DNA of 64,000 nt, taken from positions 272,783-336,782 of the forward strand of contig JAVSMS010000001.1 in the NCBI GenBank assembly GCA_032027085.1. Reading direction: 5' to 3'. The translations under genes and the position numbers were made by a program. Origin of the DNA: Pseudorhodoplanes sp. GTDB lineage: Bacteria; Pseudomonadota; Alphaproteobacteria; Rhizobiales; Xanthobacteraceae. Shown in pieces: positions 1,752 through 57,826 of the stretch; within the stretch, counting starts at the first letter, position 1; every line of letters begins with the position of its first letter. A model generated the notes under the pieces. That model ran no database searches and had not been told where the DNA came from. It saw only the letters and a program-made list of their open reading frames with translations.

Positions 1752-3161
1752 ATGGCTGAGAGAAGGCACCGACGTGCTGTGACAGCGCAGTCGTTGAAGG
1801 ATCTAGATCGACGCGCCGGGCGGAGAACGTGCGCTGATTCAGCAAGCGAGCGCAAGATTGAGCAAATCGCGCTTCGATTACTGCGGCCCTCGGGCCGCAA
1901 TGCCCGCACGCATAGCAAGAAACAGATCCGGCAGATCGCCAACAGCATTGCCAGATTCGGCTGGACCTTCCCAATTCTGATCGACGAGGACGGCAGCATT
2001 CTCGCGGGTCATGCACGTTACGAGGCTGCGATTCTGCTCGGGTTTTCCCACGCGCCGGTAATTGTCGTTTCCGACCTTAGCGGGCCGGAGAAGCGCGCCC
2101 TTATGCTGGCGGACAATCGGCTGTCTGAGAGCTCCTCCTGGGATCGCAAGCTTTTAGCTACCGAACTTACGGAACTTGCCGAGCTCCTGCCGGAAGTGGC
2201 TCTTGATCTGGACATCACCGGATTTGAGAGCGCGGAAATCGACAGCCTCCTTGCCGACTTTGCAAATCCGGATCGCGACCCGGCGGACAATTCACCGCCT
2301 CCTGAGACGAATCCGATCAGTCGGACAGGTGACGTATGGCTCCTTGGCGAACATCGACTGCTGTGCGGCAGCGCACTGGTGACTGCGGACTACAAAGCGC
2401 TCATGAAAAGGCAGCGCGCGGTGATGATGATCACCGATCCACCCTACAATGTGCGCATCAAGGACATTCAGGGCCGGGGCAAAACCAAACACCGTGAGTT
2501 CCTGCAGGCGTCCGGTGAGATGTCTTCGGTCGAGTTTCAAGAGTTCCTCCAGACCGCCCTCACCCATGCAGCCGCCTGCTCGCTAGATGGGTCGTTGCAT
2601 CTCATCTTTATGGATTGGCGGCATGCCGACGCGGTTCTCGCCGTCGGCGCAAAAGCCTTTTCCGAACTCAAGAACATCATCGTCTGGGTCAAATCGAATG
2701 GCGGACAAGGCTCGTTGTACCGTTCCCAGCATGAGTTCGTCTTCTTGTACAAGAATGGGGACGCTCCGCACGTCAACAACGTCGAGCTGGGCAAGCATGG
2801 GCGCAACCGCACCAATGTCTGGCATTACGCCGGCGTGAACACGTTTCGGGCTGGCCGAATGGATGATCTCTCAGCGCATCCGACGGTCAAGCCAGTGGCC
2901 ATGATTGCCGACGCCCTCCTCGATTGCTCGAAACGCGGCGACATTGTCCTCGATCCCTTCATGGGCTCTGGGACAACCATTATCGCGGCGGAGCGTGTCG
3001 GCCGCCGCGCCTACGGACTGGAGCTTGATCCGGCTTACGTCGACGTTGCCGTACGCCGCTGGCAAACCTTTACGCGGCGAGACGCAACACTCGAAAGCAC
3101 CGGACAGACCTTCGATGAGGTGGAAGAGAGCCGCTCCTCAGATCAGCGGACGCGCAAATGA
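1752..3161 (+). CDS. ParB-like nuclease domain / DNA methyltransferase fusion protein
   Basis: N-terminal ParB/sulfiredoxin-type region (LRPSGRNARTHSKKQIRQIANSIARFGWTFPILID...GHARYEAA). C-terminal beta-class N6A/N4C methyltransferase with DPPYN placed before FMGSGTT. Paralog at 51275..52645. Confidence 0.9.
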   Translation: MAERRHRRAVTAQSLKDLDRRAGRRTCADSASERKIEQIALRLLRPSGRNARTHSKKQIRQIANSIARFGWTFPILIDEDGSILAGHARYEAAILLGFSHAPVIVVSDLSGPEKRALMLADNRLSESSSWDRKLLATELTELAELLPEVALDLDITGFESAEIDSLLADFANPDRDPADNSPPPETNPISRTGDVWLLGEHRLLCGSALVTADYKALMKRQRAVMMITDPPYNVRIKDIQGRGKTKHREFLQASGEMSSVEFQEFLQTALTHAAACSLDGSLHLIFMDWRHADAVLAVGAKAFSELKNIIVWVKSNGGQGSLYRSQHEFVFLYKNGDAPHVNNVELGKHGRNRTNVWHYAGVNTFRAGRMDDLSAHPTVKPVAMIADALLDCSKRGDIVLDPFMGSGTTIIAAERVGRRAYGLELDPAYVDVAVRRWQTFTRRDATLESTGQTFDEVEESRSSDQRTRK

Positions 3162-3595
3162 GCCGGTGCAAAGGAAAATCTTCAGTTCCGGGAAAGCGCA
3201 ACAAAAGCCCACGTGCCGGCCGCCGCGACTGTGACGTGGGCTATTGCCGCCCGCCCCGGAAGCACCAGTTTCAGCCGGGGCAGAGCGGCAATCCGAAAGG
3301 CCGCCCCAGAGGATCCAAGAACGAGTCGACGATCCTACGCGAAATACTGAACCGCAAGCTACAAACGACCAACGGCGGTCGGTCTCGAAAAATCACGTTA
3401 CTTGAAGGTGTGCTTCTGCGCGTCGCCGAAGATGCCCTCAAAGGCAACGTCAAGAGTGCGGCTTTCCTGCTCAATCGTTACGGGACGATGGTCTCAGGCG
3501 ACATTAGGCCCGGCGAGCTAGGCGAGGACGACCAAGAGGTCCTGGACGCCTTCCTCCACCGTGCAATGTCAATGCCATCCAAGAGTAAACCATGA
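3158..3595 (+). CDS. DUF5681-type phage-associated protein (possible small terminase-like partner)
   Basis: 145 aa. ATGA overlaps with both neighbours. Basic N-terminus with the GQSGNPKGRPRGSKN motif typical of DUF5681 proteins. It sits in the position immediately upstream of TerL. Paralog at 52635..53072. Confidence 0.6.
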   Translation: MSRCKGKSSVPGKRNKSPRAGRRDCDVGYCRPPRKHQFQPGQSGNPKGRPRGSKNESTILREILNRKLQTTNGGRSRKITLLEGVLLRVAEDALKGNVKSAAFLLNRYGTMVSGDIRPGELGEDDQEVLDAFLHRAMSMPSKSKP

Positions 3596-4993
3596 ACGAG
3601 CTTGACCAGTCGGTATTCGATGCAGCACTTCGCACTGATTTTACCGCATTTCTGCATCGGTGTTTCCTCGCGCTCAATCCAGGCACCGAGTTCAAGAGCA
3701 ACTGGCACATTGAGGCAATCGCATACAAGCTGGAGCGCGCCCGGCGGGGCGAGATCCCTCGCCTCATCATCAACCTGCCGCCGCGCCACCTGAAATCGAT
3801 CATGGTATCGGTTGCCTTGCCGGCCTTTTTGCTTGGCCACGATCCGCGCCGCAAAATCATGTGCCTGAGCTACAGCGCAGATCTGTCGACCAAACATGCA
3901 GCAGACTTTCGCGCCATCGTCACCTCGGAGTGGTACCGCCGAGCTTTTCCCAAGATGCAGATCAGGCGGGAGACCGATACCGAAATCCACACATCAGAGC
4001 GCGGATATCGGAGGGCAACGTCTGTCTACGCATCCCTCACCGGATTCGGCGGCGATTTCTTTATTATCGACGACCCTCAAAAGCCGGTCGATGCGCAGTC
4101 CGAGGCCCATCGAAATTCACTGAATCAATGGTTCGACAATACGCTCATTTCTCGGCTCGATAACAAGGAAACCGGCGTCATCATCGTTGTCATGCAGCGC
4201 GTTCACTTGAACGACCTGACAGGATACCTGACCGAAACGTCACAGGACTGGATCGTTCTGAACCTGGCGGCCATTGCGGAAGCCGATGAGCACGTCCCGA
4301 TCGGCGACGGCAGCTATCCATTTTCGGCGCGCCGGCGAAGCCCTGCATCCCGAACATGAATCCCTCGAGACCCTCCAGAAACTCCGTCAGCAAGTCGGTT
4401 CTGATATATTTTCGGCACAGTACCAGCAGGCGCCTGTTCCGCTCGGCGGCGGAATGATCAAGCGAGAGTGGCTGCGCTTTTATAAAGAAGCGCCCGAGCG
4501 CATTTCCCGCGCGAAAATCATCCAGAGCTGGGACACCGCGTCAAAGAGCGGGGCTCAGAACGACTGGTCGGTGTGCACCACCTGGCTGGTCCTGGACAAG
4601 CATTACTATCTGCTGGATCTAAGGCGCGGCCGTTTCGAGTATCCGCAGTTGCGCGACGCTGCCATTCAGCTGGCCGCAGAATTTAGACCGAATGCAGTGC
4701 TGATCGAGGACGCCTCGGCCGGGACCGCCTTGGCCCAAGACATCAAGCGACTCGTTCACGTCCCTGTCAAACTTATCCGGCCGGAGCACGACAAGATTGG
4801 ACGCGTCTACGTTCAGCAGGCAAAGTTCGAGCAGGGCCTTGTGCTCTTTCCCGAGGGGGCGCCGTTTCTGCCGGAGCTTCTTTCTGAACTGCTTACTTTT
4901 CCCCAAGGCAAACACGACGATCAGCTTGACAGCGTCAGCCAGGCTCTGGCCTTCAAGAGCTTCGGCTACGACCCGACCTTCAGTTGGCTGTGA
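3592..4993 (+). pseudogene. terminase large subunit family gene, disrupted by a +1 frameshift near 4318
   Basis: ORFs 3592..4359 and 4274..4993 together align end to end with the intact 479-aa paralog 53062..54501 (LIINLPPRHLKS, FIIDDP, VMQRVHLNDL, YQQAPVP, FPQGKHDDQLD). The reading frame changes between TAT (4315-4317) and CAT (4319-4321). Confidence 0.8.
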
Positions 4994-5646: not shown

Positions 5647-6000
5647 TATCCGCAGCTACACGACGCTGCCATTCAGCTGGCCGCAGAATTCAAGCCGAAT
5701 GCTGTGCTGATTGAAGATGCTTCGGCCGGAACTGCCTTGGCGCAAGATATCAAGCGAATCGTCCACGTCCCGGTCAAGCTGATCCGGCCGGACCATGACA
5801 AGATTGGGCGCGTCTATGTCCAACAGGCGAAGTTCGAGCAGGGCCTTGTGCTCTTTCCGGAAGGGGCGCCGTTTCTGCCGGAGCTTCTTTCTGAACTGCT
5901 CACGTTCCCCCAAGGCAGACACGACGACCAGGTCGACAGCATCTGTCAGGCTCTGGCCTTCAAGAACTTTGGCTACGACACGACCTTCAGTTGGCTGTGA
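5647..6000 (+). pseudogene. duplicated 3' fragment of a terminase large subunit gene (last ~117 codons)
   Basis: YPQLHDAAIQLAAEFKPNAVLIEDASAG...FPQGRHDDQVDSICQALAFKNFGYDTTFSWL is a near-copy of 4640..4993. The upstream part of ORF 5248..6000 is not protein-like. Confidence 0.8.
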
Positions 6001-6024: not shown

Positions 6025-7086
6025 TCAACCGGCCGGATCTGGGCTTAGGCCGACCACGCCAAGCGCTCTGATCCTGGCAGCAAAAACCCGGTGCAAATCG
6101 TTCAATCGATCGGCCAGCCAGCGGTGCTGGCGCGGCCAGTCATCGGTGTCTTCTGGATCAGCGACGTCGAGTTGTATGAAGACACGGCTGCTATTCTGGT
6201 CATCGGCCACCTCATCCCAGATGAGCGGGTAACTCAGCTCGCGCTCGATCTGATCGCGGTGCTTGAGCAGGAGGTCGAAATAACTTTTCGCATTCCGCGC
6301 GGCGACGTAGAGTTCGGCACGCACCTGATCCTTGGTCCGGAGCATAACCGCGCGAAGATAAAAGCCACTACGCCCGGTTGGATAGCTCATCAAGCGCCGT
6401 GGCTGAGGCCGCTTGTTTCCGGCGACGGGACCACCTGTTGCGTCAAGGACCTCATTCAGAGCCATCCAGTAATCGCGCTGCATAAGCCGGATGTTTGTGA
6501 GCTCCGCGTCATCGATCGTCCGCGCAGCATGCGCCATCGACCGCGACCAGCCATTTGGCTGTGAAACGACATTGAATTTTGGGGCACGCAGCGAATTTTC
6601 GATACGCCACAATTCAACTTCAAGACCAAAGAAACGGAATCCGTCGTTTGTGATTCTGTTGAGCCAATCGAGGGTAGCTCGATGTTCGTCGGTAAAGCGC
6701 GCTGCAATCCAGATGATAGTGAGCGCGTCAAGTCCGGAGGCATATGTCAGAGCCTGGCCGAGATGACCATGATCGGTTCTCTCCAGCTGATTCTCGATCA
6801 GCACCCAATTCTCATCTTCATCCCGGCACAGGAGGTCTGCCTGGAATAAACCCACCGATCGTTCTCTTGCGACTGGTTCTAGCTGAAGACCCAATGCATC
6901 ACCGAGAATTGCAAGGTTTTCAAGCCGCGCGAGCCACGGCGTGAATTCTGTCGCCTCATGCGCCCAGGCCTCGCGCAGATCGCACTGTTCGAGCCGCCCA
7001 AGACCGCTCCCCGGTTTACCCCGCGCAGAATCGGTCAGATCGGCCGTCGTGACTAAGGTCATGATCTGCCTCCTTCCAGCCGACAC
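6025..7086 (-). CDS. DUF4268 domain protein with N-terminal NucS/PD-(D/E)XK-like domain
   Basis: 353 aa. WVLIENQLERTDHGHLGQALTYASGLDALTIIWIAARFTDEHRATLDWLN is the signature N-terminal block of this family. The C-terminal half (DYWMAL...YFDLLLKHRDQIERELSYPLIWD) is DUF4268-like. Confidence 0.7.
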   Translation of the reverse strand: MSAGRRQIMTLVTTADLTDSARGKPGSGLGRLEQCDLREAWAHEATEFTPWLARLENLAILGDALGLQLEPVARERSVGLFQADLLCRDEDENWVLIENQLERTDHGHLGQALTYASGLDALTIIWIAARFTDEHRATLDWLNRITNDGFRFFGLEVELWRIENSLRAPKFNVVSQPNGWSRSMAHAARTIDDAELTNIRLMQRDYWMALNEVLDATGGPVAGNKRPQPRRLMSYPTGRSGFYLRAVMLRTKDQVRAELYVAARNAKSYFDLLLKHRDQIERELSYPLIWDEVADDQNSSRVFIQLDVADPEDTDDWPRQHRWLADRLNDLHRVFAARIRALGVVGLSPDPAG

Positions 7087-7124
7087 ATCGCTCGAACGGC
7101 CGGTGCCTTCCAGCCCAACCTGAC

Positions 7125-7136
7125 ATCAGCGCTGAT
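7125..7136. promoter_or_regulatory. perfect 12-bp palindrome ATCAGCGCTGAT in a divergent intergenic region (candidate operator)
   Basis: Read directly from the sequence. It lies between the start of the minus-strand gene 6025..7086 and the XRE regulator gene 7254..7529. Confidence 0.3.
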
Positions 7137-7253
7137 AATCAGCAGATAATGGTGAATAGACATCCCAAAATGTGATGGCTCGCCAGTCAATGGATGCGAC
7201 AGAAAGAATTCAAGGTTAATCCTTTTATGGGATAATCCGAATCCGGGATCAGA

Positions 7254-7529
7254 TTGCCGCGCGTCATGGCTCCCCGGGCGCGCGGTCTCGTCAAAACCCT
7301 TCATCAGCCTGAATACCAGGCGCTTTGTGCCATGCTGGCCGACGCCCGGCGCAAGGCCGGTCTCAGCCAGCAGATCGTGGCCAAGCGCCTCAAGCGTCCG
7401 CAATCCTTTGTCGCCAAATACGAGGGCGGCGAGCGGCGTTTGGATGTCATTGAGTTCTTAGGCGTTTCGGAGGCGATCGGGGCTGATCCGGTCAAACTCT
7501 TGCGCGGCCTCATGCGCCAGATCGGCTGA
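7254..7529 (+). CDS. XRE-family helix-turn-helix transcriptional regulator
   Basis: 91 aa. LSQQIVAKRLKRPQSFVAKYEGGERRLDVIEFL is a typical HTH_XRE core. Confidence 0.8.
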   Translation: MPRVMAPRARGLVKTLHQPEYQALCAMLADARRKAGLSQQIVAKRLKRPQSFVAKYEGGERRLDVIEFLGVSEAIGADPVKLLRGLMRQIG

Positions 7530-7550
7530 TAAGTCTTTTCCGATCACAAG

Positions 7551-7877
7551 ATGCTCGCACTGGCCGTCAATGAGCCAGAAGATTGCTCATTTCGGCCTCG
7601 ACTTCTTCGCGCGGCAGAGCGTGTGTGGTTCCAACAAGGGACCGAGACCGCCATGGACCGCAGCGCGACAGACATCGCCATTCACAGTTTCCTCGTCGAA
7701 ATGCGGAGCCGGCTGTCAGAGGCCGGCAGCATCGCCACAGCGGCAGAGGCCTGTGCAGCGGCCGGCAATCTGGAAAAGGCGGTCGAAGTCGCACTGGACA
7801 TCGAGCAGCTCACCTATGAGGCGAGCCGGCTGCTCGATGCAGCAAGCCTTCTGCAACGGATCAAGCAGCAGGAATAA
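7551..7877 (+). CDS. conserved hypothetical protein (paralog of 54958..55233)
   Basis: The region from MDRSATD (internal Met at 7653) onward aligns with DRSATKALLKQELKD...AAAGEIAELA of the module-2 ORF. The true start is uncertain. Confidence 0.45.
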   Translation: MLALAVNEPEDCSFRPRLLRAAERVWFQQGTETAMDRSATDIAIHSFLVEMRSRLSEAGSIATAAEACAAAGNLEKAVEVALDIEQLTYEASRLLDAASLLQRIKQQE

Positions 7878-8387: not shown

Positions 8388-8848
8388 TGCCGGCGGATGT
8401 TGACGAAGCTATCGAAGCCGAGCTCGCTCGGCTTCGATCCATGCCGAAGGTCGAACTTCGTCAGCGCTACCGGGCGACGTTCAAGGTCGATCCGCCAAAA
8501 GCTTTCGGGCCGGACCTGCTGCGGCGGAGCCTCGCCTATCGCATCCAGGAACAAGCCTTTGGCGGGCTCGATGCCGCGACGAGGCGCATGCTGAATAACC
8601 TGATCTCCCAGCACAGCAAGGGCAAGGACGGCCGCATCGTCATGCCCCGTCGCATTAAGCCTGGCGCCGTCCTGGTGCGGGAATGGAAAGGCCAGAGCCA
8701 TCGGGTCATGGTTCTCCAGGACGGCTTTGCCTACGAGGGAAAACCCTTCGCAAGCCTCTCGGAGATCGCCCGCCTGATCACAGGCGCACGCTGGAACGGA
8801 CCTCGCTTCTTCGGGCTGCGGGACAATGGCGGGGAGGCGAAACCGTGA
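8387..8848 (+). CDS. DUF2924 domain protein
   Basis: 153 aa. Its start overlaps the upstream stop, and its stop overlaps the recombinase GTG start. LRQRYRATFKVDPPKAFGPDLLRRSLAYRIQEQAFGGL...FEGKPFASLSEIARLITGARWNGPRFFGL. Paralog at 55773..56234. Confidence 0.75.
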   Translation: MPADVDEAIEAELARLRSMPKVELRQRYRATFKVDPPKAFGPDLLRRSLAYRIQEQAFGGLDAATRRMLNNLISQHSKGKDGRIVMPRRIKPGAVLVREWKGQSHRVMVLQDGFAYEGKPFASLSEIARLITGARWNGPRFFGLRDNGGEAKP

Positions 8849-10470
8849 CGCGCAAGCCAGTCAGGAGCGCATCCATCAAGACGCTGCGATGTGCCGTTTA
8901 TACCCGTAAATCCACAGAGCACGGACTGGAATTGGAGTTCAATTCGCTGGATGCCCAGCGCGAGGCCTGCGAGGCCTATATCAAGTCGCAAGCCTCGGAA
9001 GGCTGGACCTGCCTGTCCAAGCGCTATGACGACGCGGCCTTCTCCGGCGGCACGCTGGAGCGTCCCGCCCTGCGGCGGCTCCTGAAGGACATCGAGGCAG
9101 GACTCGTCGATGTTGTCGTCGTCTACAAAATCGACCGCCTGACCCGCTCGCTCTCAGATTTTGCGAAACTCGTGGAGATCTTCGACGCGCAATCGATTTC
9201 CTTCGTCGCTGTGACCCAACAGTTCAACACCACGACCTCGATGGGGCGCCTGACGCTCAACATTCTCCTCTCCTTTGCCCAGTTCGAGCGTGAGCTTTCC
9301 TCCGAACGGGTACGCGACAAGGTGGCAGCCTCCCGCAAGAAGGGCAAATGGACCGGCGGGACAGTGCCGCTCGGCTATGACAGCCGCGACAAGAAACTTG
9401 CCGTGAACCCGGCCGAGGCCAAGACCGTGCGCATGATTTTTGAGCGCTATCTTGCCTTGAAGTCGGCTCCAAAGCTTATCGAAGAGCTCGACCGCAAAGG
9501 CGTCGTCACCAAGAAACGTGCGCTCCAGGGCAAGACGGCAGGCAATGTGCCTTTCACTTATGGGTCGCTCGTGTATCTGCTCAAGAACCGCACCTATGTC
9601 GGCGAGGTTGGCCATGACGGCAAATGGTTTGAAGGCGAGCACGAGCCGATTCTGGACCGTGAGCTATTCGCGCGCGCGCAGGAGGTCCTGAAATCCAACG
9701 CTGTCCGGCGCCGAAAACAGCGTGCAGAGACCGGCGCCCTGCTCTCTGGCCTGCTCTACGATGACCGCGGCCATCGCATGAGCCCGAGCTACTCGGTCAA
9801 AAACGGCGTACGCTATCCCTTCTACGTCAGCGCCGCCATCCTAAAGGGACGCAAACGAGAAGCCGGTTCGATCGCCCGCGTCGGCGCACCTCAGATTGAG
9901 ACCCTCGTCATTGCAAGCTTGCGCAAACACCTGCAGCAGCAGGATGATGCAGTCACGTCCCGCACTCTTCTCGAACAATGCGTCGACAGGATCACGATCT
10001 TTCCGGCCAAGATCACAATCAACCTCAAAGCCGACAGCTCGTCTGCAGAGCGAGCAGCCGGCTCCTTTGACATGCCCTGGTCACCCGCCAAGAAGACTGG
10101 TCTTGTCGAGATCAGCGAGCCGAATGATTCATCGCCGCCCTCCCCAAAATCCGAACTTGTTCAAGCCTTGGTGCGCGCCCATGTGTGGCTCGCCCAACTG
10201 AAGAGCGGCACATTCAAATCGATCGAAGACCTCGCCCAGGCGGTGAAAATTCACCCCAAGAACATACGTTTGGGCCTGAAGTTGGCATTCCTTTCGCCGC
10301 AACTGGTCCGTGAAATCCTGCGCGGCGAGCAAGCTCCCGCGATAACCGTAACAAGCCTAGGCAACATTTCTGAGCTTTCCTGGATGGGCCAGGAAGCCGC
10401 ATTGAAATCGCGCAATTCGCACCGCATCATGCGACCCGGGGCGGCTGGGGACCAAGGCCATGTTACTTAG
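8845..10470 (+). CDS. large serine recombinase
   Basis: Resolvase-type catalytic N-terminus (AVYTRKSTEHGLELEFNSLDAQREACEAYI...YKIDRLTRSL) followed by a recombinase domain and a long C-terminus. The start is placed at GTG 8845 (GTGA overlap) by alignment to paralog 56231..57826. The ORF-track start 8683 is an upstream extension that overlaps the DUF2924 gene. Confidence 0.9.
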   Translation: MTRKPVRSASIKTLRCAVYTRKSTEHGLELEFNSLDAQREACEAYIKSQASEGWTCLSKRYDDAAFSGGTLERPALRRLLKDIEAGLVDVVVVYKIDRLTRSLSDFAKLVEIFDAQSISFVAVTQQFNTTTSMGRLTLNILLSFAQFERELSSERVRDKVAASRKKGKWTGGTVPLGYDSRDKKLAVNPAEAKTVRMIFERYLALKSAPKLIEELDRKGVVTKKRALQGKTAGNVPFTYGSLVYLLKNRTYVGEVGHDGKWFEGEHEPILDRELFARAQEVLKSNAVRRRKQRAETGALLSGLLYDDRGHRMSPSYSVKNGVRYPFYVSAAILKGRKREAGSIARVGAPQIETLVIASLRKHLQQQDDAVTSRTLLEQCVDRITIFPAKITINLKADSSSAERAAGSFDMPWSPAKKTGLVEISEPNDSSPPSPKSELVQALVRAHVWLAQLKSGTFKSIEDLAQAVKIHPKNIRLGLKLAFLSPQLVREILRGEQAPAITVTSLGNISELSWMGQEAALKSRNSHRIMRPGAAGDQGHVT

Positions 10471-11941: not shown

Positions 11942-12046
11942 GCGCGATCGCCCTTTATTGATTCAGGTAACGTCCATTATGGAACATTTTCTCACTCAGT
12001 ATGATTGAGACGAAAGAGATCGAGAATGCTCGGTCTGAGGTGACGC

Positions 12047-13576: not shown

Positions 13577-13586
13577 GCTGTCCCTC

Positions 13587-14465
13587 TCACCGCGTCGGGA
13601 AGTACCGGCCCATAATCTCGCCCCAAAGGGCAAGCGCTTCGCCGGTCTTGCCCTGGGTCTCAAGGCGCATGGCAAGCGATGCGTTTTTCTCCGCCGTGCG
13701 CATCACGGCGATGGCCTTCTGCACGAGATCCGGCGTCATCTGGTCGGAAACGTGCGGCCCGAGCCCGGCGGGGTCCGGCCATGGGCCTGACAGCACCGCC
13801 GGAGCGGCGGCGAAGAAACGCTGCACCTCGCGCGCGTAGGTGGTGAAAGGCGCATCGACAAGGTCGAGGGCCATGACTTCGATCAAGAACGACGGTTTGA
13901 TCGGTTTGTCGGCGGAACGGTTCCAACGCTTCAACATCTTCACGAGCGGGACCCACTTTCCGCCAAGCGCCCTGTTCTTGGCGGTGGACTTCTCCGCGTG
14001 GACCTCGGGATCTGTCTTGATCCACTTTCCGAGGTCGCGGTCCGGGATTTCGTAGCAGTCGCTGAGCTCGAACGCGGGCACCGCGTCGATCGACAGCACC
14101 TTACCCTCCTCGTCCTTGGTGTTCTTCTCGAATTCGACGGTGACCGAGCGCCGGCCGCGGTCGACCGCATCGGCGCCGTACTTGTCCTTCAAGCAATCAT
14201 AGAAGGCGTCGATTATCTCGGCGGGTGGCTTGTCGCGCCACTTCTTCTCGGCGCTGCCGAGCGCAAAGAAGACGTCGACGTCCTTCAGCGGCTTCGTCTT
14301 GGTGTGCCGGTCATAGGATCCGGTGAGGAAATCGCGGTCGACCGCGAACGTGGCGCGGATGCAGTCGCGGACCTCGTTGTGTCGCTTGCTCGCGTTCTTC
14401 GCCTCAGTGTCGCTGAGTTCGAGGCGCTGGCGGAACGTTTCAAAGGCTTCGTTGACGCTGGTCAT
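13587..14465 (-). CDS. CD-NTase (cGAS/DncV-like nucleotidyltransferase)
   Basis: 292 aa from MTSVNEAF. TGSYDRHTKTKPLKDVDVF gives the GS...DxD active site, and SIDAVPAF gives the third Asp. ATGA overlap with the upstream HORMA gene. The longer ORF-track N-terminus overlaps that gene and is Arg/His-rich. Confidence 0.85.
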   Translation of the reverse strand: MTSVNEAFETFRQRLELSDTEAKNASKRHNEVRDCIRATFAVDRDFLTGSYDRHTKTKPLKDVDVFFALGSAEKKWRDKPPAEIIDAFYDCLKDKYGADAVDRGRRSVTVEFEKNTKDEEGKVLSIDAVPAFELSDCYEIPDRDLGKWIKTDPEVHAEKSTAKNRALGGKWVPLVKMLKRWNRSADKPIKPSFLIEVMALDLVDAPFTTYAREVQRFFAAAPAVLSGPWPDPAGLGPHVSDQMTPDLVQKAIAVMRTAEKNASLAMRLETQGKTGEALALWGEIMGRYFPTR

Positions 14466-16531: not shown

Positions 16532-16553
16532 TGTGATTTGCGAGGAGAATGGC

Positions 16554-19183: not shown

Positions 19184-19212
19184 GCGCCGACTACGAGACT
19201 ACGGTCAGGTTC

Positions 19213-50354: not shown

Positions 50355-50507
50355 TGACGTCGCGCTGTAGTTTCTGGGCACCAGCGGACGCGCTCCATAA
50401 TCTGTCATTATCGGAATCGGCGTCCCGTCTTGCTAATGAAACCATATTCATTATTTCATTGAAACCTCTCTTGACGCCTTTCTTTTGTCTAACTAAAACC
50501 TAGGTCC

Positions 50508-51194
50508 ATGAGAATCGCTCAAGGCGCAAGATACCAGCGCAACCAAATCGAAGAGGCTTTGGCCTACGCTGTGCACTTCAGGCCGCCGGTCCAGCCAGAG
50601 TTGCGTTTGGAAATCAAGCGCTTGCTTGATACCGACCGGAAGATTGGCATCAGTCCCCGGGCCAAATCCGCCGAATCCCGCCACTTGGCTTTTGTCAGCC
50701 ACCGGCCGGAAGGCACAGGCTTCAATATCGAGTACGCAGACTACGACGTCTTCGCCCTCTACGTCGGCATTAAGCTGCTGCGAGCAGGCTTCACCCAGCT
50801 CGGAATTGCAACGCTCATGCGCCGGTTGCGACCTGCGCTCATCGAGAAGCACCAGGAAATTCTTTCCTGGCAACCGGCCTCATTGCTCGACAACAAACCC
50901 GAGGTTGATCTGGAGACTAGTGTAAGCGAGGGCCAGTTGGTCAAGACGCTTGAGAATATGGTCTGTCTCATCTTGCCGACCGGCAAATACTCCGGCCTGG
51001 CGTTCAAGACCCAAGCTGATCAGGACCAAGGCCGGCCCGCCAATATCGCGCATGGCAAGGACGCCATCGAGGATCGACTACAAATCGAGCTGGCGTTCGG
51101 CGCAACCCCTGTCACCATTGAACTCGTCAATCCCACGCACCGCCTGGCCTATTGGCTCAGGCGAACCGAGCGCCTGGAACGAGGCCGGAAATAA
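50508..51194 (+). CDS. hypothetical protein
   Basis: 228-aa ORF and the first ORF after the IclR gene. It immediately precedes the module-2 ParB-methylase gene. No recognisable motif. Confidence 0.4.
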   Translation: MRIAQGARYQRNQIEEALAYAVHFRPPVQPELRLEIKRLLDTDRKIGISPRAKSAESRHLAFVSHRPEGTGFNIEYADYDVFALYVGIKLLRAGFTQLGIATLMRRLRPALIEKHQEILSWQPASLLDNKPEVDLETSVSEGQLVKTLENMVCLILPTGKYSGLAFKTQADQDQGRPANIAHGKDAIEDRLQIELAFGATPVTIELVNPTHRLAYWLRRTERLERGRK

Positions 51195-51274: not shown

Positions 51275-52645
51275 ATGAATCCCAGTCATTTTTATCCACT
51301 GAACGTCGAATATCGGCGAATAGAGGAACTGAAGCCCTCCCCTCACAACGCGCGCACCCATTCGCGCAAGCAAATCAAACAGGTTGCTCGCTCAATCAAG
51401 CAGTTTGGCTTCACTAATCCTGTTCTGATCGACGATACGGGCCGGATCATTTCCGGCCATTGTCGTGTGGAGGCGGCCAAGCTGCTTGGGCTTCAGGAAG
51501 TGCCGACTGTAAAACTATCATATCTAAGCAAGGCCCAGGTCCGCGCCTATATGATTGCCGACAACAAGCTCGCCGAGAATGCGGGCTGGGATAAAAGTAT
51601 TCTAGTTCTAGAATTCCAGGAATTGATCGAGCTCGGTTTCGACGTTGAGTTCACCGGCTTCTCGATGGCCGAGATTGATCTAACCCTGGGCGAGATCGGC
51701 GAAAGCGCGTTATCGGCGGAGAATACAGTTGTAGAGCAGGAAGTGGGCGCCCTTCCGATCATCAACCCAGGCGATTTGTGGCAGCTCGGGGTGCATCGCC
51801 TCCTGCATGGGGACGCGCTTGATCCAAGGAGCTATGAGCAGTTGCTACGAGGCGAGAAAGCCTCCGCGGTCTTTGCGGACCCGCCCTACAACGTGAAGAT
51901 CGATGGGCATGTCAGCGGTCTTGGCAAAACTCGGCATCGGGAGTTTGCCATGGCCTCGGGCGAGATGTCGGAGGCGGAATTCACCGGCTTTCTGACGAGC
52001 CTGTTCAAAAATCTCGTCCAGAACAGCAAAGACGGATCAATTCACTTCATCTGCATGGACTGGCGGCATCTGCAAGAGGCGCTCGCAGCCGGAAATGCCA
52101 CCTATGATGAGCTGAAGAACCTGTGCGTCTGGAACAAGAACAACGGCGGGATGGGATCGCTTTATCGTTCCAAGCATGAGCTCGTCTTTGTGTACAAGCA
52201 TGGCCAGGCTCCGCACCTCAATAATGTGGAGCTCGGCAAGCATGGTCGATCCCGCTTCAATGTCTGGGACTATCCGGGGGTGAATACGTTTCGGCCCGGC
52301 CGCGATGAGGCGGTCAGTGCACACCCTACCGTGAAGCCGGTGGCGCTGGTTGCCGATGCCATTCTGGACGTCACCCGCCGCAAGGACATCGTTCTGGACC
52401 CGTGCGGGGGATCAGGAACGACGCTCATTGCGGCGGATCGCACAGGTCGTCATGCGCGACTCATCGAAATCGACCCACTCTACTGTGACGCAATCGTCCG
52501 CCGTTGGCAAAAGGCCACCGGCAAGCAGGCCATTCATGCTGAGACTGGCCGAACCTTTGACGATATTGCCGCCACCAAGCTTGCCATTGTGCAAGCGGCG
52601 CGTCAGCACGCGCTTCCCGAACTCTCGCAGGTAGGTGATGCATAA
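51275..52645 (+). CDS. ParB-like nuclease domain / DNA methyltransferase fusion protein (module 2)
   Basis: 456 aa. LKPSPHNARTHSRKQIKQVARSIKQFGFTNPVLID, FADPPYN, LDPCGGSGTT. Paralog of 1752..3161. Confidence 0.9.
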   Translation: MNPSHFYPLNVEYRRIEELKPSPHNARTHSRKQIKQVARSIKQFGFTNPVLIDDTGRIISGHCRVEAAKLLGLQEVPTVKLSYLSKAQVRAYMIADNKLAENAGWDKSILVLEFQELIELGFDVEFTGFSMAEIDLTLGEIGESALSAENTVVEQEVGALPIINPGDLWQLGVHRLLHGDALDPRSYEQLLRGEKASAVFADPPYNVKIDGHVSGLGKTRHREFAMASGEMSEAEFTGFLTSLFKNLVQNSKDGSIHFICMDWRHLQEALAAGNATYDELKNLCVWNKNNGGMGSLYRSKHELVFVYKHGQAPHLNNVELGKHGRSRFNVWDYPGVNTFRPGRDEAVSAHPTVKPVALVADAILDVTRRKDIVLDPCGGSGTTLIAADRTGRHARLIEIDPLYCDAIVRRWQKATGKQAIHAETGRTFDDIAATKLAIVQAARQHALPELSQVGDA

Positions 52646-53072
52646 TTCAGATGATGATGGCGCCAACAGCGCCGGGAAACGGAACTACACAGTCGGTTAC
52701 AAAAAGCCACCCAGTCATTCGCGTTTCAAGCCCGGACAGAGCGGCAATCCGAGCGGACGGCCCAAAAAGGCCCCGAGTCTGAGTACTCACGCAAAGAACA
52801 TTCTATCTGAGAAGATAGCAATGCGAGAGGGCGATCAAGTCAAACACATCACCATGCGCGAGGCTCTCCTACGGACAACTCTAAAAGCAGCGTTAAGCGG
52901 CGACCATCGCGCGAGGCAGTTCTACCTTCTGCTGATTCAACAATCAGAGCACGAAGAACGGGTCACGACCGGCAATGAAGACCAGTTTGCCGAGTTACAG
53001 GAAGTGGACCAGATCATTCTGGATGAATTCCAAGCCCACTTTAGCACAAAGGAAGCGGAAGATGGCAGCTGA
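52635..53072 (+). CDS. DUF5681-type phage-associated protein (module 2)
   Basis: 145 aa with a GQSGNPSGRPKK motif. Paralog of 3158..3595. Confidence 0.6.
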   Translation: MMHNSDDDGANSAGKRNYTVGYKKPPSHSRFKPGQSGNPSGRPKKAPSLSTHAKNILSEKIAMREGDQVKHITMREALLRTTLKAALSGDHRARQFYLLLIQQSEHEERVTTGNEDQFAELQEVDQIILDEFQAHFSTKEAEDGS

Positions 53073-54501
53073 GGCTGTCAAAAGATCTCCCGTCACTCAC
53101 GATGTCATCTCGCAGCAGCGCCTCTTGCAGGCGCTGCTGCGGACAGACCTTGCCTCCTTTATCGGTAAGACCTTCGGGCAGATCGCGCCGGGCGCCACGT
53201 ATCTGCCCAACTGGCACATCCGCGCCATTGCCTGGCATCTGCAGCAGGTCGAGGCCGGCCAGATCAAGCGCCTCCTGATCACCATGCCGCCGCGCTCGCT
53301 CAAGTCGATCGCGGCCTCGGTTGCATTCCCGGCCTGGCTTTTAGGCCGCGATCCGACACGCCGCATCATTTGCGTGAGCTATGCGAATGAACTCGCCGTC
53401 AAGCATGCAAATGACTGTCGCGCAGTCATGCAGTCGGATTGGTATCAGGGGCTGTTTCCGCAAAACCGCATTCGCCGCCTGAAGAATACCGAACACGAGG
53501 TGCACACTGTCAATAACGGCTACCGATTTGCAACCACAACCGGCGGCACTCTGACAGGTCGTGGCGGCAACCTCATTATTATCGACGATCCGATCAAGGC
53601 AAGCGAGGCAGCGTCGGAGGCAGCCCGCGTCAAGGTCAAATCCTGGTTCGACGAGACCCTCCTGTCGCGTCTGGACAACAAGACCGAGGATGCGATCGTC
53701 CTCGTCATGCAGCGGCTGCACGTCGATGATCTTGCCGGCCATGTGCTGGAGAAAGGCGGCTGGGTGCATCTCAATCTGCCGGCCATTGCGGAAAGCGAGA
53801 CCAGGACCGTCACCGGGCCCAACCGACATTATGTGCGTAAAGTCGGTGAGGTGCTCCACCCGGCCCGCGAGCCGAGATTCGTTCTCGATGAATTAAAGGT
53901 GGCCATGGGCTCAAGCGCCTTCTCAGCGCAGTACCAGCAGGCTCCGGTCCCACCCGGCGGCAACATGATCCGCTGGGAATGGTTTGAAATCTATGACGAG
54001 CTCCCTCCCCTCGGCCCCAACGACAAGATCGTCACCAGCTGGGATACGGCCTCGAAGGCGACCGAGCTTGCCGATTACACCGTTGGCATCACTTTCCAGA
54101 CCGCTGGCGAGCGCATTTTCATTCGCGATGTTGTACGGGAGCGGCTGGACTACCCTAGCCTCATCCGCCGTGTTCTGGTCGAGCGCGAGCGCTGGAAGCC
54201 CACTGCTCTGCTCATTGAAGACAAGGGGTCAGGCACGAGCCTCATTCAGGACCTGCGATCGAAATTCGTGCCGGTCATTCCCATTTTACCCGAAGGCGAC
54301 AAGATTGTGCGCATGAGCGCGCAATCGGCCAAGATCGAGGGCGGGGCTGTTTATCTTCCCAAGCGCGCTGATTGGCTCGGCGACTTCCGTTCCGAGATTC
54401 TCGCCTTTCCACATGGGCAGTTTGATGACCAGGTAGACGCGCTGTCGCAAGGACTGCGCTGGATCACCGGCCGGCAGCGCTCGTTGCTCGACGTTCTCTA
54501 G
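53062..54501 (+). CDS. terminase large subunit family protein (intact)
   Basis: Start taken at MAAEAVKRS (ATG 53062). LLITMPPRSLKS, LIIIDDP, VMQRLHVDDL, YQQAPVPPGG, FPHGQFDDQVDALSQ. Collinear with the frameshifted copy 3592..4993. Confidence 0.85.
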   Translation: MAAEAVKRSPVTHDVISQQRLLQALLRTDLASFIGKTFGQIAPGATYLPNWHIRAIAWHLQQVEAGQIKRLLITMPPRSLKSIAASVAFPAWLLGRDPTRRIICVSYANELAVKHANDCRAVMQSDWYQGLFPQNRIRRLKNTEHEVHTVNNGYRFATTTGGTLTGRGGNLIIIDDPIKASEAASEAARVKVKSWFDETLLSRLDNKTEDAIVLVMQRLHVDDLAGHVLEKGGWVHLNLPAIAESETRTVTGPNRHYVRKVGEVLHPAREPRFVLDELKVAMGSSAFSAQYQQAPVPPGGNMIRWEWFEIYDELPPLGPNDKIVTSWDTASKATELADYTVGITFQTAGERIFIRDVVRERLDYPSLIRRVLVERERWKPTALLIEDKGSGTSLIQDLRSKFVPVIPILPEGDKIVRMSAQSAKIEGGAVYLPKRADWLGDFRSEILAFPHGQFDDQVDALSQGLRWITGRQRSLLDVL

Positions 54502-54791
54502 CGCGCAGGCGGCACGGCAGAAAGCGTTCGCTTTTCGAAGACTCCGCTTGCCCTCACGAATTTTAATGCGTCGATGGTCAGGCGGGTTGGATCCCGCTTT
54601 CCCTCCTGGCTGAGTTCGATGATTTTCTTTGCCAGCAGTTCCGAGACGGCGGGCGACCGATCCCGAAGTTCTCCGGTATGGGTCAGGATTTCAATGGCAC
54701 GGTCATAAGAGGCTGCGAGCACGGCCAAAGTCTCGGGCTCCAGCGCCTCCTGACGCGACGACACGCCTTGTTCCATGACGCCTTGTTCCAT
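54498..54791 (-). CDS. hypothetical protein
   Basis: 97-aa ORF convergent with TerL. It starts with a tandem 15-nt duplication (MEQGV MEQGV). No family recognised. Confidence 0.3.
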   Translation of the reverse strand: MEQGVMEQGVSSRQEALEPETLAVLAASYDRAIEILTHTGELRDRSPAVSELLAKKIIELSQEGKRDPTRLTIDALKFVRASGVFEKRTLSAVPPAR

Positions 54792-54957
54792 GACGCCTTA
54801 CACCGCCAATGCCGCAGAGGTTCATTCGCCTGGCTGTCGGCTTGACACATTATTCTATGAACAGCGTAACCCCGCGCTCAAGGGTACCGCCGGTTGAAAA
54901 CATGGCGGGCCATTGCGGGACTAGGTTGCTTACCAAAGATGCTCGATCTGCCGCCCA

Positions 54958-55233
54958 ATGAGCCAGAAAATTGCTCTCATTGCGCTCGACTTCGGCGGCA
55001 AAGCACGCATGTCTGTGGGCATGACAAAGCCACCAGACCGCAGTGCAACAAAGGCCCTGCTCAAGCAGGAGCTGAAGGACATCCACCGGCGATTGCGCAA
55101 GGCCCAAAACCTGGTCGAGGCCAACGAACTCGAACAGGCCGTCGCTGCTGCAGGCGAAATCGCTGAGCTCGCCTGGCAAGTCGCTCATATTCTTGTCGCC
55201 GAGGAACTCCTGCACCGTTTTACAAAGACATAA
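54958..55233 (+). CDS. conserved hypothetical protein (paralog of 7551..7877)
   Basis: 91 aa, helical. The DRSATKALLKQELKD...AAAGEIAELAWQ block is shared with module 1. Confidence 0.5.
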   Translation: MSQKIALIALDFGGKARMSVGMTKPPDRSATKALLKQELKDIHRRLRKAQNLVEANELEQAVAAAGEIAELAWQVAHILVAEELLHRFTKT

Positions 55234-55773: not shown

Positions 55774-56234
55774 TGCAGGAAAATGTGGATCAAGAAATCG
55801 AAGCCGAGGTCAATCGGCTTCGGTCCATGCCCAAGGCCGAGCTGCGCGTGCGCTACCGCACGCTGTTCAAGGCCGAGCCGCCCAAGGCCTTTGGTCCGGA
55901 CCTCTTGCGGCGAAGCATCGCCTACAAGATCCAGGAACAGGCCTATGGCGGATTGGATGCTGACACACGACGCCTCTTGAACAACCTCATGGCCCAGCAG
56001 GCCAGGAGCAAGGACGGCCGCATCGTCATCCCGCGCCGGATCAAGCCGGGCGCTGTTCTGGTGCGCGACTGGAAGGGCAAGAGCCACCGCGTCATGGTTC
56101 TGGAGGATGGCTTTGCCTATGAGGGCAAACCCTATGCCAGCCTCTCCGAAATCGCCCGGGCGATCACCGGCGCTCGCTGGAACGGGCCGCGCTTCTTCGG
56201 CCTGCGCGCCAACAGCCGGGAGGTGTCGGCATGA
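55773..56234 (+). CDS. DUF2924 domain protein (module 2)
   Basis: 153 aa, near-collinear with 8387..8848 and with most residues identical by eye. Confidence 0.75.
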   Translation: MQENVDQEIEAEVNRLRSMPKAELRVRYRTLFKAEPPKAFGPDLLRRSIAYKIQEQAYGGLDADTRRLLNNLMAQQARSKDGRIVIPRRIKPGAVLVRDWKGKSHRVMVLEDGFAYEGKPYASLSEIARAITGARWNGPRFFGLRANSREVSA

Positions 56235-57826
56235 GGCGGAGGGCGTCTTCAGTCACCGCGGCGCAGGAGAGAATCCTGCGCTGCGCCATCTACACCCGCA
56301 AATCCACAGAACACGGACTGGAACTGGAATTCAACTCGCTGGATGCCCAGCGCGAGGCCTGTGAGGCCTATATCAAGTCGCAGGCCTCCGAAGGCTGGAC
56401 CTGCCTGCCCAAACGCTATGACGACCCGGCCTTCTCAGGCGGCAATCTCGAGCGCCCTGCCCTGCAGCGACTGCTGAAAGATATCGAGGCCGGTCTCGTC
56501 GATGTAATCGTCGTCTACAAGATCGACCGCCTCACCCGCTCCCTTGCCGATTTTGCCAAGCTGGTTGAGGTTTTCGACGCAAGGTCGATCTCGTTTGTGG
56601 CGATCACCCAGCAGTTCAACACCACAACCTCGATGGGCCGCCTGACGCTCAACATTCTGCTCTCCTTTGCCCAGTTCGAGCGCGAACTCTCCTCCGAACG
56701 GGTGCGGGACAAGGTCGCGGCCTCGCGCAGGAAAGGCAAATGGACCGGCGGCAGCGTGCCGCTCGGTTATGACAGCCGCGACAAGAAGCTCGTCGTGAAC
56801 CAGACCGAGGCGAGAACCATTCGGATGATCTTCGAGCGCTACCTCGCCCTGAAATCCGTCCCGAAACTGATCGAGGAGCTCGACCGCAAAGGCGTCGTCA
56901 CCAAGAAGCGTCCGCTGAAGGGCAAAACCGCTGGGGGCGTGCCCTTTAACTACGGCTCGCTCATCTATCTGCTCAAGAACCGCACGTATCTCGACGAGGT
57001 CGGCCACGGCGGCAAATGGTTCGAGGGAGAACATGAGTCGATCCTGGATCGCGGCGCGTTTGAGCGGGTTCAGGAAACACTAAAGACCAATGCCGTCCAG
57101 CGCCGCAAGCAGCGTGCCGAGACCGGCGCCCTGCTCGCCAGGCTCCTGTACGACGACCGCGGCAATCGAATGAGCCCAAGCTATTCGATCAAGAACGGCG
57201 TGCGTTATCCATTTTATGTGAGCGCTGCCATCCTCAAAGGCCGAAAGAAAGATGCCGGCTCGGTTGCGCGCGTCCCGGCGACAGAAATCGAAAAGGCAGT
57301 AGTCACCGCGCTCCGCAAGTATTCCGACGAAGCAGGGGCTGACATCGACCTCACCCCGCAGGACTTTTTCGAACGCCTGGTGCAACGAATTGTCGTCCGA
57401 CACACCAAAATCGTCATCGATTTCAAAGACGCAGCATCAGTCCAAGGCGCGACCAAATCCCTCTCACCGCTCGAAATACCTTGGTCTCGACCCAGGAAAA
57501 ATGGCTTTGCGGAGGTCAGCGAACCCGAGGATGCGCACGACAGCGGGACCGTTCACGATCAACCTAAGCCAGAGTTCGTGCAGGCGGTGGCACGGGCCCA
57601 TCTGTGGCTCAAGCGGTTACAAGATGGCACCTATCACTCGATAGAGGATCTCGGCCGCGCCGCGAATATTCATCCGAAGAACGTGCGAATTGGATTGCGG
57701 CTGGCGTTCCTTGCTCCGAAGATCACAAAAGCTATCCTCACAGGAAGCTCGCTCAGTGGAAAGATGTCTTCGGGCTTAGTCCAAACAGCCGACGCGCTAT
57801 CGTGGCGCGACCATGCGAGCGCCTAA
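56231..57826 (+). CDS. large serine recombinase (module 2)
   Basis: 531 aa. AIYTRKSTEHGLELEFNSLDAQREACEAYI...YKIDRLTRSL. The first ~400 residues are nearly identical to 8845..10470 and the C-terminal ~130 residues diverge. Confidence 0.9.
   Translation: MRRRASSVTAAQERILRCAIYTRKSTEHGLELEFNSLDAQREACEAYIKSQASEGWTCLPKRYDDPAFSGGNLERPALQRLLKDIEAGLVDVIVVYKIDRLTRSLADFAKLVEVFDARSISFVAITQQFNTTTSMGRLTLNILLSFAQFERELSSERVRDKVAASRRKGKWTGGSVPLGYDSRDKKLVVNQTEARTIRMIFERYLALKSVPKLIEELDRKGVVTKKRPLKGKTAGGVPFNYGSLIYLLKNRTYLDEVGHGGKWFEGEHESILDRGAFERVQETLKTNAVQRRKQRAETGALLARLLYDDRGNRMSPSYSIKNGVRYPFYVSAAILKGRKKDAGSVARVPATEIEKAVVTALRKYSDEAGADIDLTPQDFFERLVQRIVVRHTKIVIDFKDAASVQGATKSLSPLEIPWSRPRKNGFAEVSEPEDAHDSGTVHDQPKPEFVQAVARAHLWLKRLQDGTYHSIEDLGRAANIHPKNVRIGLRLAFLAPKITKAILTGSSLSGKMSSGLVQTADALSWRDHASA

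Follow-up and report, generated by a model that had tools for sequence, protein, structure and literature searches.

Two copies of a widespread family of phage-derived integrative islands with a capsid-less terminase cassette in a Pseudorhodoplanes chromosome

A stretch of 64 kb from the genome of Pseudorhodoplanes sp. (contig JAVSMS010000001.1, positions 272,783 to 336,782; hereafter the window, numbered from its first nucleotide) carries two copies of one phage-derived integrative island family. Element 2 (50,391 to 62,930) is intact, while element 1 (~900 to 23,100, beyond which an IS66 element is inserted) is decaying, as concluded from a frameshift in its gene for the large terminase TerL and from an additional C-terminal TerL fragment. 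Both consist of a terminase cassette, a large serine recombinase (LSR) and, after the LSR, a cargo of defence genes which is closed by a conserved end region of ~250 bp. Judged by sequence comparison, both modules represent copies of a genuine integrative mobile element. The family is widespread and apparently undescribed: full-text searches of the literature library that was covered found no description of the architecture or of the family, and the original prediction, made from the nucleotide sequence of the window, likewise knew of no satellite family with this architecture. Tentatively, and with a confidence that falls somewhat short of even, we interpret these elements as a new family of helper-dependent, satellite-like 'hitcher' islands that would use their own terminase.

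The open reading frames (ORFs) of the window were searched with the profiles of Pfam and PHROGs, and defence genes were annotated with PADLOC. Both modules lie on the plus strand and share an identical order of genes, which code for a ParB-methyltransferase (PM; ParB_N and N6_N4_Mtase domains), a DUF5681 protein (D5), TerL, DUF3489, DUF2924 and the LSR. This order and orientation had been proposed for positions 1752 to 10470 and 51275 to 57826, and both profile collections confirmed it. The proposal that every gene has a paralogue in the other module held for these six genes, with pairwise protein identities of 52% (PM), 35% (D5), 44-49% (TerL), 42% (DUF3489), 78% (DUF2924) and 70% (LSR); on the DNA level, the 1.8 kb from DUF3489 through LSR were 77% identical between the modules. 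It did not hold for the small ORFs, which exhibited no clear paralogy between the modules, the sole match spanning 25 residues. The ORFs of ~220 amino acids upstream of the modules, U1 (996-1658) and U2 (50508-51194), occupy equivalent positions and were not similar. No ORF of the 64-kb window matched a portal, capsid, protease, tail or lysis family in Pfam or PHROGs, in agreement with the original prediction. The element limits given there proved too narrow, as the defence cargo and the conserved right-end region belong to each element, and the TerL assigned to each module was intact in module 2 and frameshifted in module 1. According to Pfam, the DNA that separates the modules (26-50.4 kb) encodes ordinary metabolic functions. 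The location is chromosomal, with the window placed on a 4.97-Mb contig in public assemblies of the same genome, and a similarity search of plasmid DNA with the window yielded nothing useful.

A scan with a TerL alignment, restricted to one genome per species, resulted in 447 confirmed matches, of which the best 80 loci were examined together with flanks of 10 kb. A TerL was called at 76 loci in ~70 genomes; ORFs were called simply as the longest ones, neighbouring genes were assessed within the 10-kb flanks, and taxonomy was taken from the record titles of metagenome-assembled genomes (MAGs), in which binning errors are possible. Among these best-scoring loci, PM was encoded at 67 of the 76, D5 at 58 and an LSR at 30. 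A portal or capsid gene was present at none of them, so the case that homologous modules always reside within complete prophages was not encountered. When 56 ORFs of at least 200 amino acids downstream of TerL were searched with Pfam along with six control ORFs from phage-like IMG/VR contigs, three portal matches were obtained, and these were the three control portals. Searches with the portal, MuF and capsid proteins from the closest genuine phages gave no match in the window or in the relatives L001-L100 (loci are denoted by L and a number throughout). According to the MAG titles, the family extends beyond Alphaproteobacteria to Gamma- and Deltaproteobacteria/Myxococcota, Nitrospirales, Binataceae, Gemmatimonadota and Tepidisphaerales, and the cassette TerLs are ~49-60% identical across the classes and phyla so named. 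The smallest relatives consist of the five genes PM-D5-TerL-DUF2924-LSR on ~6 kb.

The cassette TerLs were clearly separated from those of phages. In a collection of deposited phages, the best TerL match was at most 39% identical. IMG/VR contigs with a TerL of at least 43% identity contained the same module, with the exception of L197, L201 and L202 (46%, Mu-type portals), and those with a TerL of at most 39% identity were mostly ordinary phages. For a neighbour-joining tree of 151 TerLs, a TerL was assigned to a phage context on the basis of a directly following ORF of 400 or more amino acids, together with the Pfam controls. All 91 cassette-context TerLs fell into one clade of 99 tips, and all 28 TerLs with a portal-sized ORF downstream lay outside, with L197, L201 and L202 placed just outside the clade. 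The phage TerLs nearest to this clade adjoin Mu-type portal and MuF genes. This topology suggests a single origin of the cassette TerLs. A record of the deposited phages, MT839917.1 (5,365 bp, 'Bacteriophage sp.', from human faeces), was the only one in the collection to combine a DUF5681 match (40%) with the best TerL match (39%); this short unannotated fragment may be a gut member of the cassette family that was filed as phage.

Comparisons of element 2 with its relatives revealed low ratios of nonsynonymous to synonymous substitution rates (dN/dS), with values of 0.056-0.077 for TerL, 0.08 for PM, 0.15-0.19 for D5, 0.16 for LSR and 0.2-0.28 for DUF2924. In the family alignment, the Walker-type ATPase residues and the acidic nuclease residues of TerL were invariant. 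The substitution ratios indicate that the core genes are under purifying selection and that their function is kept.

The near relatives of element 2 reside in other genomic contexts and carry other cargo. Over 7.4 kb (50391-57732), element 2 was 81% identical to the metagenome contig L001, which has a different left flank and a Druantia system as cargo. The loci L087 and L091 share a core of 7.1 kb with 94.5% identity; their left flanks differ (folD versus an efflux operon), and the cargo consists of SIR2 in L087 and of a Tle1-like gene and CBASS-SLATT in L091. Both are closed by the ~250-bp region, yet their right-end regions were only 79% identical. Cargo and right end therefore seem to have been exchanged between near-identical backbones. 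Cargo occupies two slots, one after TerL and one after the recombinase, and lay downstream on the TerL or LSR side at the loci examined. Pseudolabrys taiwanensis, the sole named species in the 90%-identity cluster of the window's HyuB, maintains the HyuB-HyuA-IclR synteny and lacks the element, with similarity ending at the stop codon of IclR. Together with the different contexts of the relatives, this speaks against modules that are fixed at syntenic positions, the other outcome considered at the start.

The recombinases contain the LSR domains PF00239 and PF07508 and comprise 531 amino acids in one element and 541-595 in the other; as in satellites, a site-specific integrase is combined with chromosomal integration. 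A tRNA gene convergent with the LSR was present at 13 loci that carry an LSR (tRNA-Ser, -Ala, -Met or -Gln), located 80-620 bp past the LSR stop codon in 12 of the 13 and at 1.4 kb in L082. This adjacency implies that the LSR side is an element end and that tRNA genes are the usual target. Direct repeats of the tRNA gene were not detected at the far end of these tRNA-adjacent elements, which fits a serine recombinase. About eight of the scanned genomes hold two or three cassette copies. On a gammaproteobacterial MAG chromosome (OZ245760.1, 1.20-1.29 Mb), three copies of cassette and LSR (L068, L080 and L082) were located within ~90 kb; like the two copies within 50 kb in the window, they may reflect a regional accumulation of elements. 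Cassette units of 3.6-5.4 kb without recombinase also persist in different flanks.

The ~250-bp right-end regions of elements 1 and 2 were 79.5% identical (element 1 against 62691-62900), and the region recurs behind the dissimilar cargo of L087 (19395-19648) and L091 (13128-13377). It is non-coding, contains five GTCTC/GAGAC motifs in inverted pairs and is predicted to fold as RNA far more stably than shuffled sequence (z = -4.85). Almost no covariation was found, which is uninformative with five sequences. The region could be a part of attP, a platform for protein binding, or an RNA. In L159 (4511-4779), an isolated remnant of it was found between metabolic genes. A metagenome scan with an 18-mer from the region yielded 87 matches, of which only L159 shares the region and the others were at chance level.

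A second conserved feature was a cis array of the heptamer CAGGGAA(T). Heptamer clusters were found in 30 of 86 loci, and all of them adjoin the cassette except two extra clusters (L054 and L072) more than 4 kb away; as estimated from the counts, about one pair would be expected by chance across all loci taken together. Typically, a TTCCCTG-N7-8-...-CAGGGAA dyad is followed, after ~100 bp, by two or three direct copies at distances of 11 or 21 bp, and the array is positioned 250-1000 bp upstream of PM or just past the LSR. In the window, it was detected at the right end of element 1, split by IS66. The array is also part of a 3.6-kb unit without LSR that is 88-94% identical in different flanks (Sphingomonadales), and of a 5.4-kb unit present in two copies in one Rhizobiaceae MAG. 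Its presence in units without LSR means that the array tracks with PM-D5-TerL and not with the recombinase. It is a candidate pac or loading site; it could also be a replication origin, for which no initiator was found.

The left junction of element 2 (50391..50507, plus strand), from which point on relatives in other flanks are similar, contains the motif TCCATAATC..TTATCGGAATC, followed by a pair of TGAAACC repeats at a distance of 22 bp and by a TTGACG box resembling a -35 element. The boundary between core and cargo coincides with the LSR stop codon and is marked by the conserved motif CTAAC(A/G)TCC(AT)TATGGAA(C/T)AT (57805..57850, plus strand), past which similarity to the relatives stops. 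The 250-bp end of the element (62930), read by eye, contains what we take to be the 3' end of a tRNA-Gln on the minus strand; Rfam and other tools detect none there, and the same applies to sequences resembling a tRNA 3' end at unit ends, which were likewise read by eye. The partial dyad symmetry is suggestive of att sites in which the left-junction motif TCCATAATCGG.. is paired with the motif at the LSR stop codon or with the tRNA-Gln-like end of the 250-bp region. The junction motifs are compatible with att sites of serine recombinases and are regarded as candidates.

In this tentatively favoured interpretation as helper-dependent islands, the CAGGGAA array, PM, DUF5681 in the position of the small terminase and TerL would constitute a capsid-less 'packaging-initiation cassette', to which full elements add a possible small-ORF switch, DUF3489, DUF2924 and the LSR. 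The recombinase would insert the island into the chromosome, in many relatives beside tRNA genes. A compatible helper phage would provide empty proheads, and the island terminase would recognise the cis site of the island, cut there and pump island DNA into the helper capsids while the ParB-methyltransferase modified this DNA. Packaging would take place either after LSR-mediated excision or straight from the chromosome, and in the recipient cell the serine recombinase would integrate the island. DUF5681 is a candidate small terminase by its position, its size and the overlap of its gene with terL. A ParB-methyltransferase gene just upstream of terminase genes is known from phages as the 'ParB-Tls' packaging locus (PMC6536676), and here the ParB-methyltransferase gene likewise lies directly upstream of the terminase genes. 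Defence systems, of which the cargo consists, are carried by known satellites as well.

Several observations weigh against this interpretation. For DUF5681, a sequence search of the PDB gave no match, and an AlphaFold2 model compared with Foldseek gave no fold match in the PDB and retrieved from BFVD only other DUF5681 proteins; a DUF5681 hidden Markov model did not match the ORFs in the small-terminase position of related phages (E>0.01), which are very heterogeneous. Headful packaging needs concatemers, and Pfam and PHROGs identified no replication gene (primase, helicase or Rep) among the core genes. All characterised satellite families possess a replication gene (PMC10803314). A recombinase was missing within 10 kb at 46 of the 76 loci, at which one could sit further away. 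The CAGGGAA array was absent from the lineage of element 2. No clean attB was derived, as P. taiwanensis shares the left flank only and no empty site with both flanks matching was found; an exact-protein search with the flanking genes retrieved only the same strain, with the element. A helper phage, for which no genome-wide search was made, a circular form or a terminal repeat was not seen, and no IMG/VR contig had direct terminal repeats. Finally, TerL needs a specific portal, and identities of ~49-60% between phyla are surprising if the protein has to fit many different helpers.

Two other explanations were considered, both of which we regard as unlikely. The cassette might be a phage-interference or defence module that is kept because it sabotages phages, be it as a decoy terminase, by diverting proheads or cleaving the concatemers of the phage, or in a restriction-modification-like manner with the methylase marking self and TerL acting as an ATP-driven nuclease; the spread of the islands by recombinase and ordinary transduction would then be a side issue. 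The persistence of the cassette as a 3.6-5.4-kb unit without recombinase and under strong purifying selection, its placement among defence systems, the lack of replication genes and a conservation across phyla that fits a function independent of a helper portal are in line with interference, and known satellites interfere with the packaging of their helpers (PMC11417361). However, PADLOC provided only generic methyltransferase models for PM and none for D5, TerL or U2, and in phages a ParB-methylase together with a terminase is the usual arrangement for packaging (PMC6536676). The tight linkage to an LSR located at tRNA genes and the exchange of cargo within conserved ends characterise a mobile element rather than a defence operon, and the heptamer array in cis suggests that the cassette acts on its own DNA. 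The cassette might alternatively serve as an in-situ 'lateral transduction launch pad', an explanation to which we likewise give only a small chance. The terminase would start at the chromosomal cis site and package in one direction through cassette and cargo, with neither excision nor replication, which would render the downstream DNA, here defence islands, highly transducible whenever proheads are present. Such a role agrees with the missing replication module, with the recombinase-less copies in different flanks, with cargo that is always downstream and with an array upstream of PM-D5-TerL in most lineages, so that the cassette and the downstream cargo would be packaged first; phages and PICIs are reported to move defence systems by lateral transduction (PMC12829572). 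Yet the packaging direction and the role of the array are assumptions, the lineage of element 1 has the array at its far right end, the conserved LSR and the tRNA-side position imply that excision and integration matter at least for full elements, and a helper phage, of which none was identified, would be needed here as well. An extension of this idea, which we consider doubtful to a similar degree, is that the minimal unit of array, PM, DUF5681 and TerL is an autonomous, capsid-less selfish packaging-initiation element, a single lineage across many phyla, that turns neighbouring chromosomal DNA into cargo of phage capsids without excision or replication, starting with the cassette itself and followed by defence islands.

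Two further explanations appear very improbable. That the modules are cryptic remnants or decayed ends of serine-integrase prophages after loss of their structural genes is suggested by the phage relatives of each part in PHROGs, by the presence of DUF2924 and a serine recombinase also in phage WO regions of Wolbachia (PMC10299305) and by the real decay of element 1 with its frameshifted TerL, TerL fragment and IS66. This is contradicted by a capsid-less layout that is repeated at 76 loci, by dN/dS values of 0.06-0.28, by near-identical cores with different cargo and flanks, and by the clade of cassette TerLs, from which all phage-context TerLs are absent. Within the 10-kb flanks, the terminase was not accompanied by the head, tail and lysis genes that adjoin it in a prophage. 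These comparisons indicate that the modules are not decayed prophage ends. The islands might also be parasites of gene transfer agents (GTAs) and load themselves into RcGTA-type particles of Alphaproteobacteria, an option raised in the original prediction. GTAs are common in Alphaproteobacteria, the host of the window resembles Pseudolabrys and appears to belong to the Hyphomicrobiales, and the smallest elements measure ~6 kb. Full elements of 12-22 kb, however, exceed the headful of RcGTA, which is ~4 kb, and no GTA genes were found near the modules in the window. The family extends well past Alphaproteobacteria according to the MAG titles; to our knowledge, RcGTA-type GTAs have not been described in those other groups. 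Because of this taxonomic spread and of the Mu-type portal and MuF genes that adjoin the nearest phage TerLs, hijacking of a GTA is highly unlikely as a general explanation. The interpretation as helper-dependent islands with their own terminase remains the one that we tentatively follow.

The intact element 2 begins past its left junction with U2 (50508..51194, plus strand; 228 amino acids). The AlphaFold2 model of U2 (pLDDT 81, pTM 0.85) had its best PDB fold match in the MerR-type regulator CvkR, a weak match (E=3.9e-3), and was not Rep-like; ten homologues were found in all. U2 is probably a MerR-like DNA-binding regulator, as judged from this model. It is followed on the plus strand by PM2 (51275..52645), with ParB_N and N6/N4 DNA methyltransferase domains in Pfam and a full-length match to phrog_498 (E=4e-125), by the candidate small terminase D5_2 (52635..53072; Pfam) and by the intact TerL2 (52975..54501; Terminase_6C; phrog_38, E=4.8e-107), which probably starts at 53062 and would then comprise 479 amino acids. 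Two divergent small ORFs (54498..55233) code for 97 amino acids on the minus strand (54498-54791) and 91 amino acids on the plus strand (54958-55233). They are kept in L001, L087 and L091, with a dN/dS of 0.17-0.19 for the 91-amino-acid ORF, and possibly act as a repressor/Cro-like switch ahead of DUF3489 (55294-55773), DUF2924 (55773-56234) and LSR2 (56231..57826; phrog_95 integrase), all of which are encoded on the plus strand and were recognised by Pfam.

The defence cargo of element 2 (58007..62442, minus strand; Pfam and PADLOC) comprises a WYL-DEDDh exonuclease-BRCT gene (PDC-S48-like), an ORF of 167 amino acids, and a DUF4411 gene beside an RmrA-type HTH-M78 gene. The HTH-M78 protein matched the Rosmer models (RmrA) and the adjacent DUF4411 protein had no PADLOC match; the two may form a Rosmer-like pair with DUF4411 as the putative toxin. 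Between the cargo and the conserved right-end region (62667..62930, plus strand; nhmmer) lies a pseudo-tRNA-fMet without D-loop (62585..62645, minus strand), which scored 28.1 bits with the Rfam tRNA model against a gathering score of 29. ARAGORN had no match at this position, and no intact tRNA or known RNA was detected in the window. The pseudo-tRNA probably represents what is left of a former tRNA-Met attachment site. A fragment similar to it (84% over 58 nt) was found directly after TerL in the Paracoccaceae locus L024.

Further defence-like genes follow past the 250-bp end of element 2 (63448-64000, plus strand) and continue in L270 (5147-8995). This block contains a PDC-S14-like gene, an ORF of 164 amino acids, a metallophosphatase, an AAA ATPase and an Xre/MbcA-type antitoxin and stops at a truncated MmgE/PrpD gene ~5 kb beyond the window (at ~69 kb if numbered as the window). 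This block might represent another, tandemly accreted island. A weak match to the antisense RNA of R1162-like plasmids at 63057-63132 (plus strand; 26 bits in a lenient Rfam search with a gathering score of 55; E=0.04) is probably due to chance.

Element 1 starts with U1 (996..1658, plus strand), a hypothetical protein of 220 amino acids which matched neither Pfam nor PHROGs. PM1 (1752..3161; ParB_N and N6/N4 DNA methyltransferase in Pfam) and the candidate small terminase D5_1 (3158..3595; PF18932, E=9.5e-24) follow on the plus strand. The TerL pseudogene (3592..4993, plus strand) has one frameshift at ~4305-4319 that divides it into the ORFs 3592-4359 and 4274-4993; it aligned with TerL2 in two frames in tblastn, the Terminase_6C match was in the second ORF, and public gene calls are split as well. 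The extra TerL fragment (5647..5955, plus strand; Pfam and tblastn) forms the C-terminal third of the ORF 5248-6000 (plus strand) and derives from a different TerL that is 45% identical to TerL2. By its sequence, it points to a third cassette which recombined with or inserted into the variable slot of element 1 and of which it would be the remnant. The cargo in this slot is a DUF4268 gene (6025..7086, minus strand) that matched the PADLOC candidate PDC-S11 (E=1.4e-111). The small ORFs between TerL and DUF3489 (7059..7877) code for 114 amino acids on the minus strand, for an overlapping protein with the Pfam domain HTH_31 (7254-7529, plus strand) and for 108 amino acids (7551-7877, plus strand), a possible regulatory switch. 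DUF3489 (7890-8387), DUF2924 (8387-8848) and LSR1 (8683..10470; Resolvase and Recombinase domains) complete the core on the plus strand, all assigned by Pfam; public gene calls start LSR1 ~162 nt further in, which corresponds to 541 amino acids.

The defence cargo of element 1 (10460..22593; Pfam and PADLOC) opens with a nuclease of PD-(D/E)XK and RNase_H_2 type. It continues with a CBASS endonuclease-SAVED effector (12047-13675) and a CBASS cyclase (13587-14831), an ORF of 444 amino acids (14950-16284, plus strand) that matched neither Pfam, PHROGs nor PADLOC, CapH/CapP (16497-17773), a Tle1-like hydrolase (17951-19183, plus strand) recognised by Pfam and lacking a PADLOC model, and a ResIII helicase of PDC-S71-like type (19213-22593). 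Hydrolases of the Tle1-like family (DUF2235-type phospholipases of type VI secretion systems) were located near a CBASS operon in two elements, the second being L091 (10127-11314, minus strand), and may be an unrecognised defence component. The right-end region (22692..22947, plus strand; nhmmer), rich in inverted repeats with the GTCTC/GAGAC motifs, is directly followed by the heptamer array (22948..23097), of which a further copy lies at 25736 past the IS66-family insertion. The latter (23130..25735, plus strand; Pfam) resides within the array region, codes for TnpA/B/C (23182-25702) and does not belong to the element. It is followed at ~25745-25925 by the truncated left end of another IS66. 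Both IS66 copies are preceded by the near-identical 24-bp motif A(G/A)CAGGGAAT.T.AAATCGCTATG, as if it were a preferred target.

It has long been asked how genomic islands, and defence islands in particular, can spread when they encode neither conjugation nor virion functions. The present family offers a concrete and testable answer, in which the only 'transfer' genes are a terminase, its putative partner and a methylase beside a cis array. It is widespread, has its TerLs in one clade and reshuffles CBASS, Druantia, SIR2, the Rosmer-like pair and PDC candidates on near-identical backbones; satellite and prophage finders currently overlook it or label it 'viral', as in short IMG/VR contigs. If the islands are satellites, they would constitute the first type with a large terminase of its own and neither capsid nor replicon, which would change the minimal gene set for the hijacking of phages. 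Should the cassette be an interference system, it would represent a new defence principle based on a captured terminase, and as a packaging-initiation element it would stand for a new gene-mobilising class and a mechanism for the movement of defence islands.

Among known systems, the ParB-Tls locus of Paracoccus prophages shares the ParB-domain m6A/m4C methyltransferase followed by terminase genes, but continues in phages with portal, protease, capsid and tail genes, whereas the present locus ends at TerL at every locus examined and its TerLs form a separate clade (PMC6536676). Pipolins and other defence-carrying islands resemble the family in a conserved core that flanks exchangeable defence slots, yet their core contains PolB, a primase or a tyrosine integrase instead of a terminase cassette and a serine recombinase (PMC11551731). 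The cf-PICIs are integrative, code for their own TerL and TerS and carry accessory and defence genes (bioRxiv 10.1101/2022.09.08.507074), with DUF5681 here being a candidate TerS only. They also encode capsid, portal, protease, head-tail connectors and a replication module and take only tails from the helper; the present islands have none of these genes and use a serine recombinase. PICIs are defined by a tyrosine integrase, stl/str, pri-rep and terS/ppi/cpm, in place of which a serine recombinase, no pri-rep and TerL rather than terS alone were found; a divergent pair of small ORFs is present. The pac site of bacteriophage P1, according to the work of Sternberg, has two clusters of short repeats around a spacer of ~100 bp, and adenine methylation of the DNA is coupled to its use. 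The CAGGGAA array is likewise laid out in two clusters and lies beside a dedicated methyltransferase gene; the motif differs, and we regard the resemblance as a lead only.

PLEs of Vibrio cholerae likewise integrate by an LSR and defend the host against phage (PMC6002521). They possess RepA and many ICP1-specific effectors, lack TerL and are confined to V. cholerae, and the recombinase class alone is common to both. PICMIs of the Vibrionaceae, at ~6 kb, are as small as the five-gene relatives of the present islands; both are devoid of capsid-remodelling genes, and PICMIs are packaged as concatemers in full-size helper capsids (PMC10803314). With int, alpA and primase and no packaging genes, they are the mirror image of the present islands, which have excision and packaging genes and no replication gene. 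The islands lack the defining features of PICIs, cf-PICIs, PLEs and PICMIs and are nearest to a satellite equipped with the opposite half of the PICMI toolkit.

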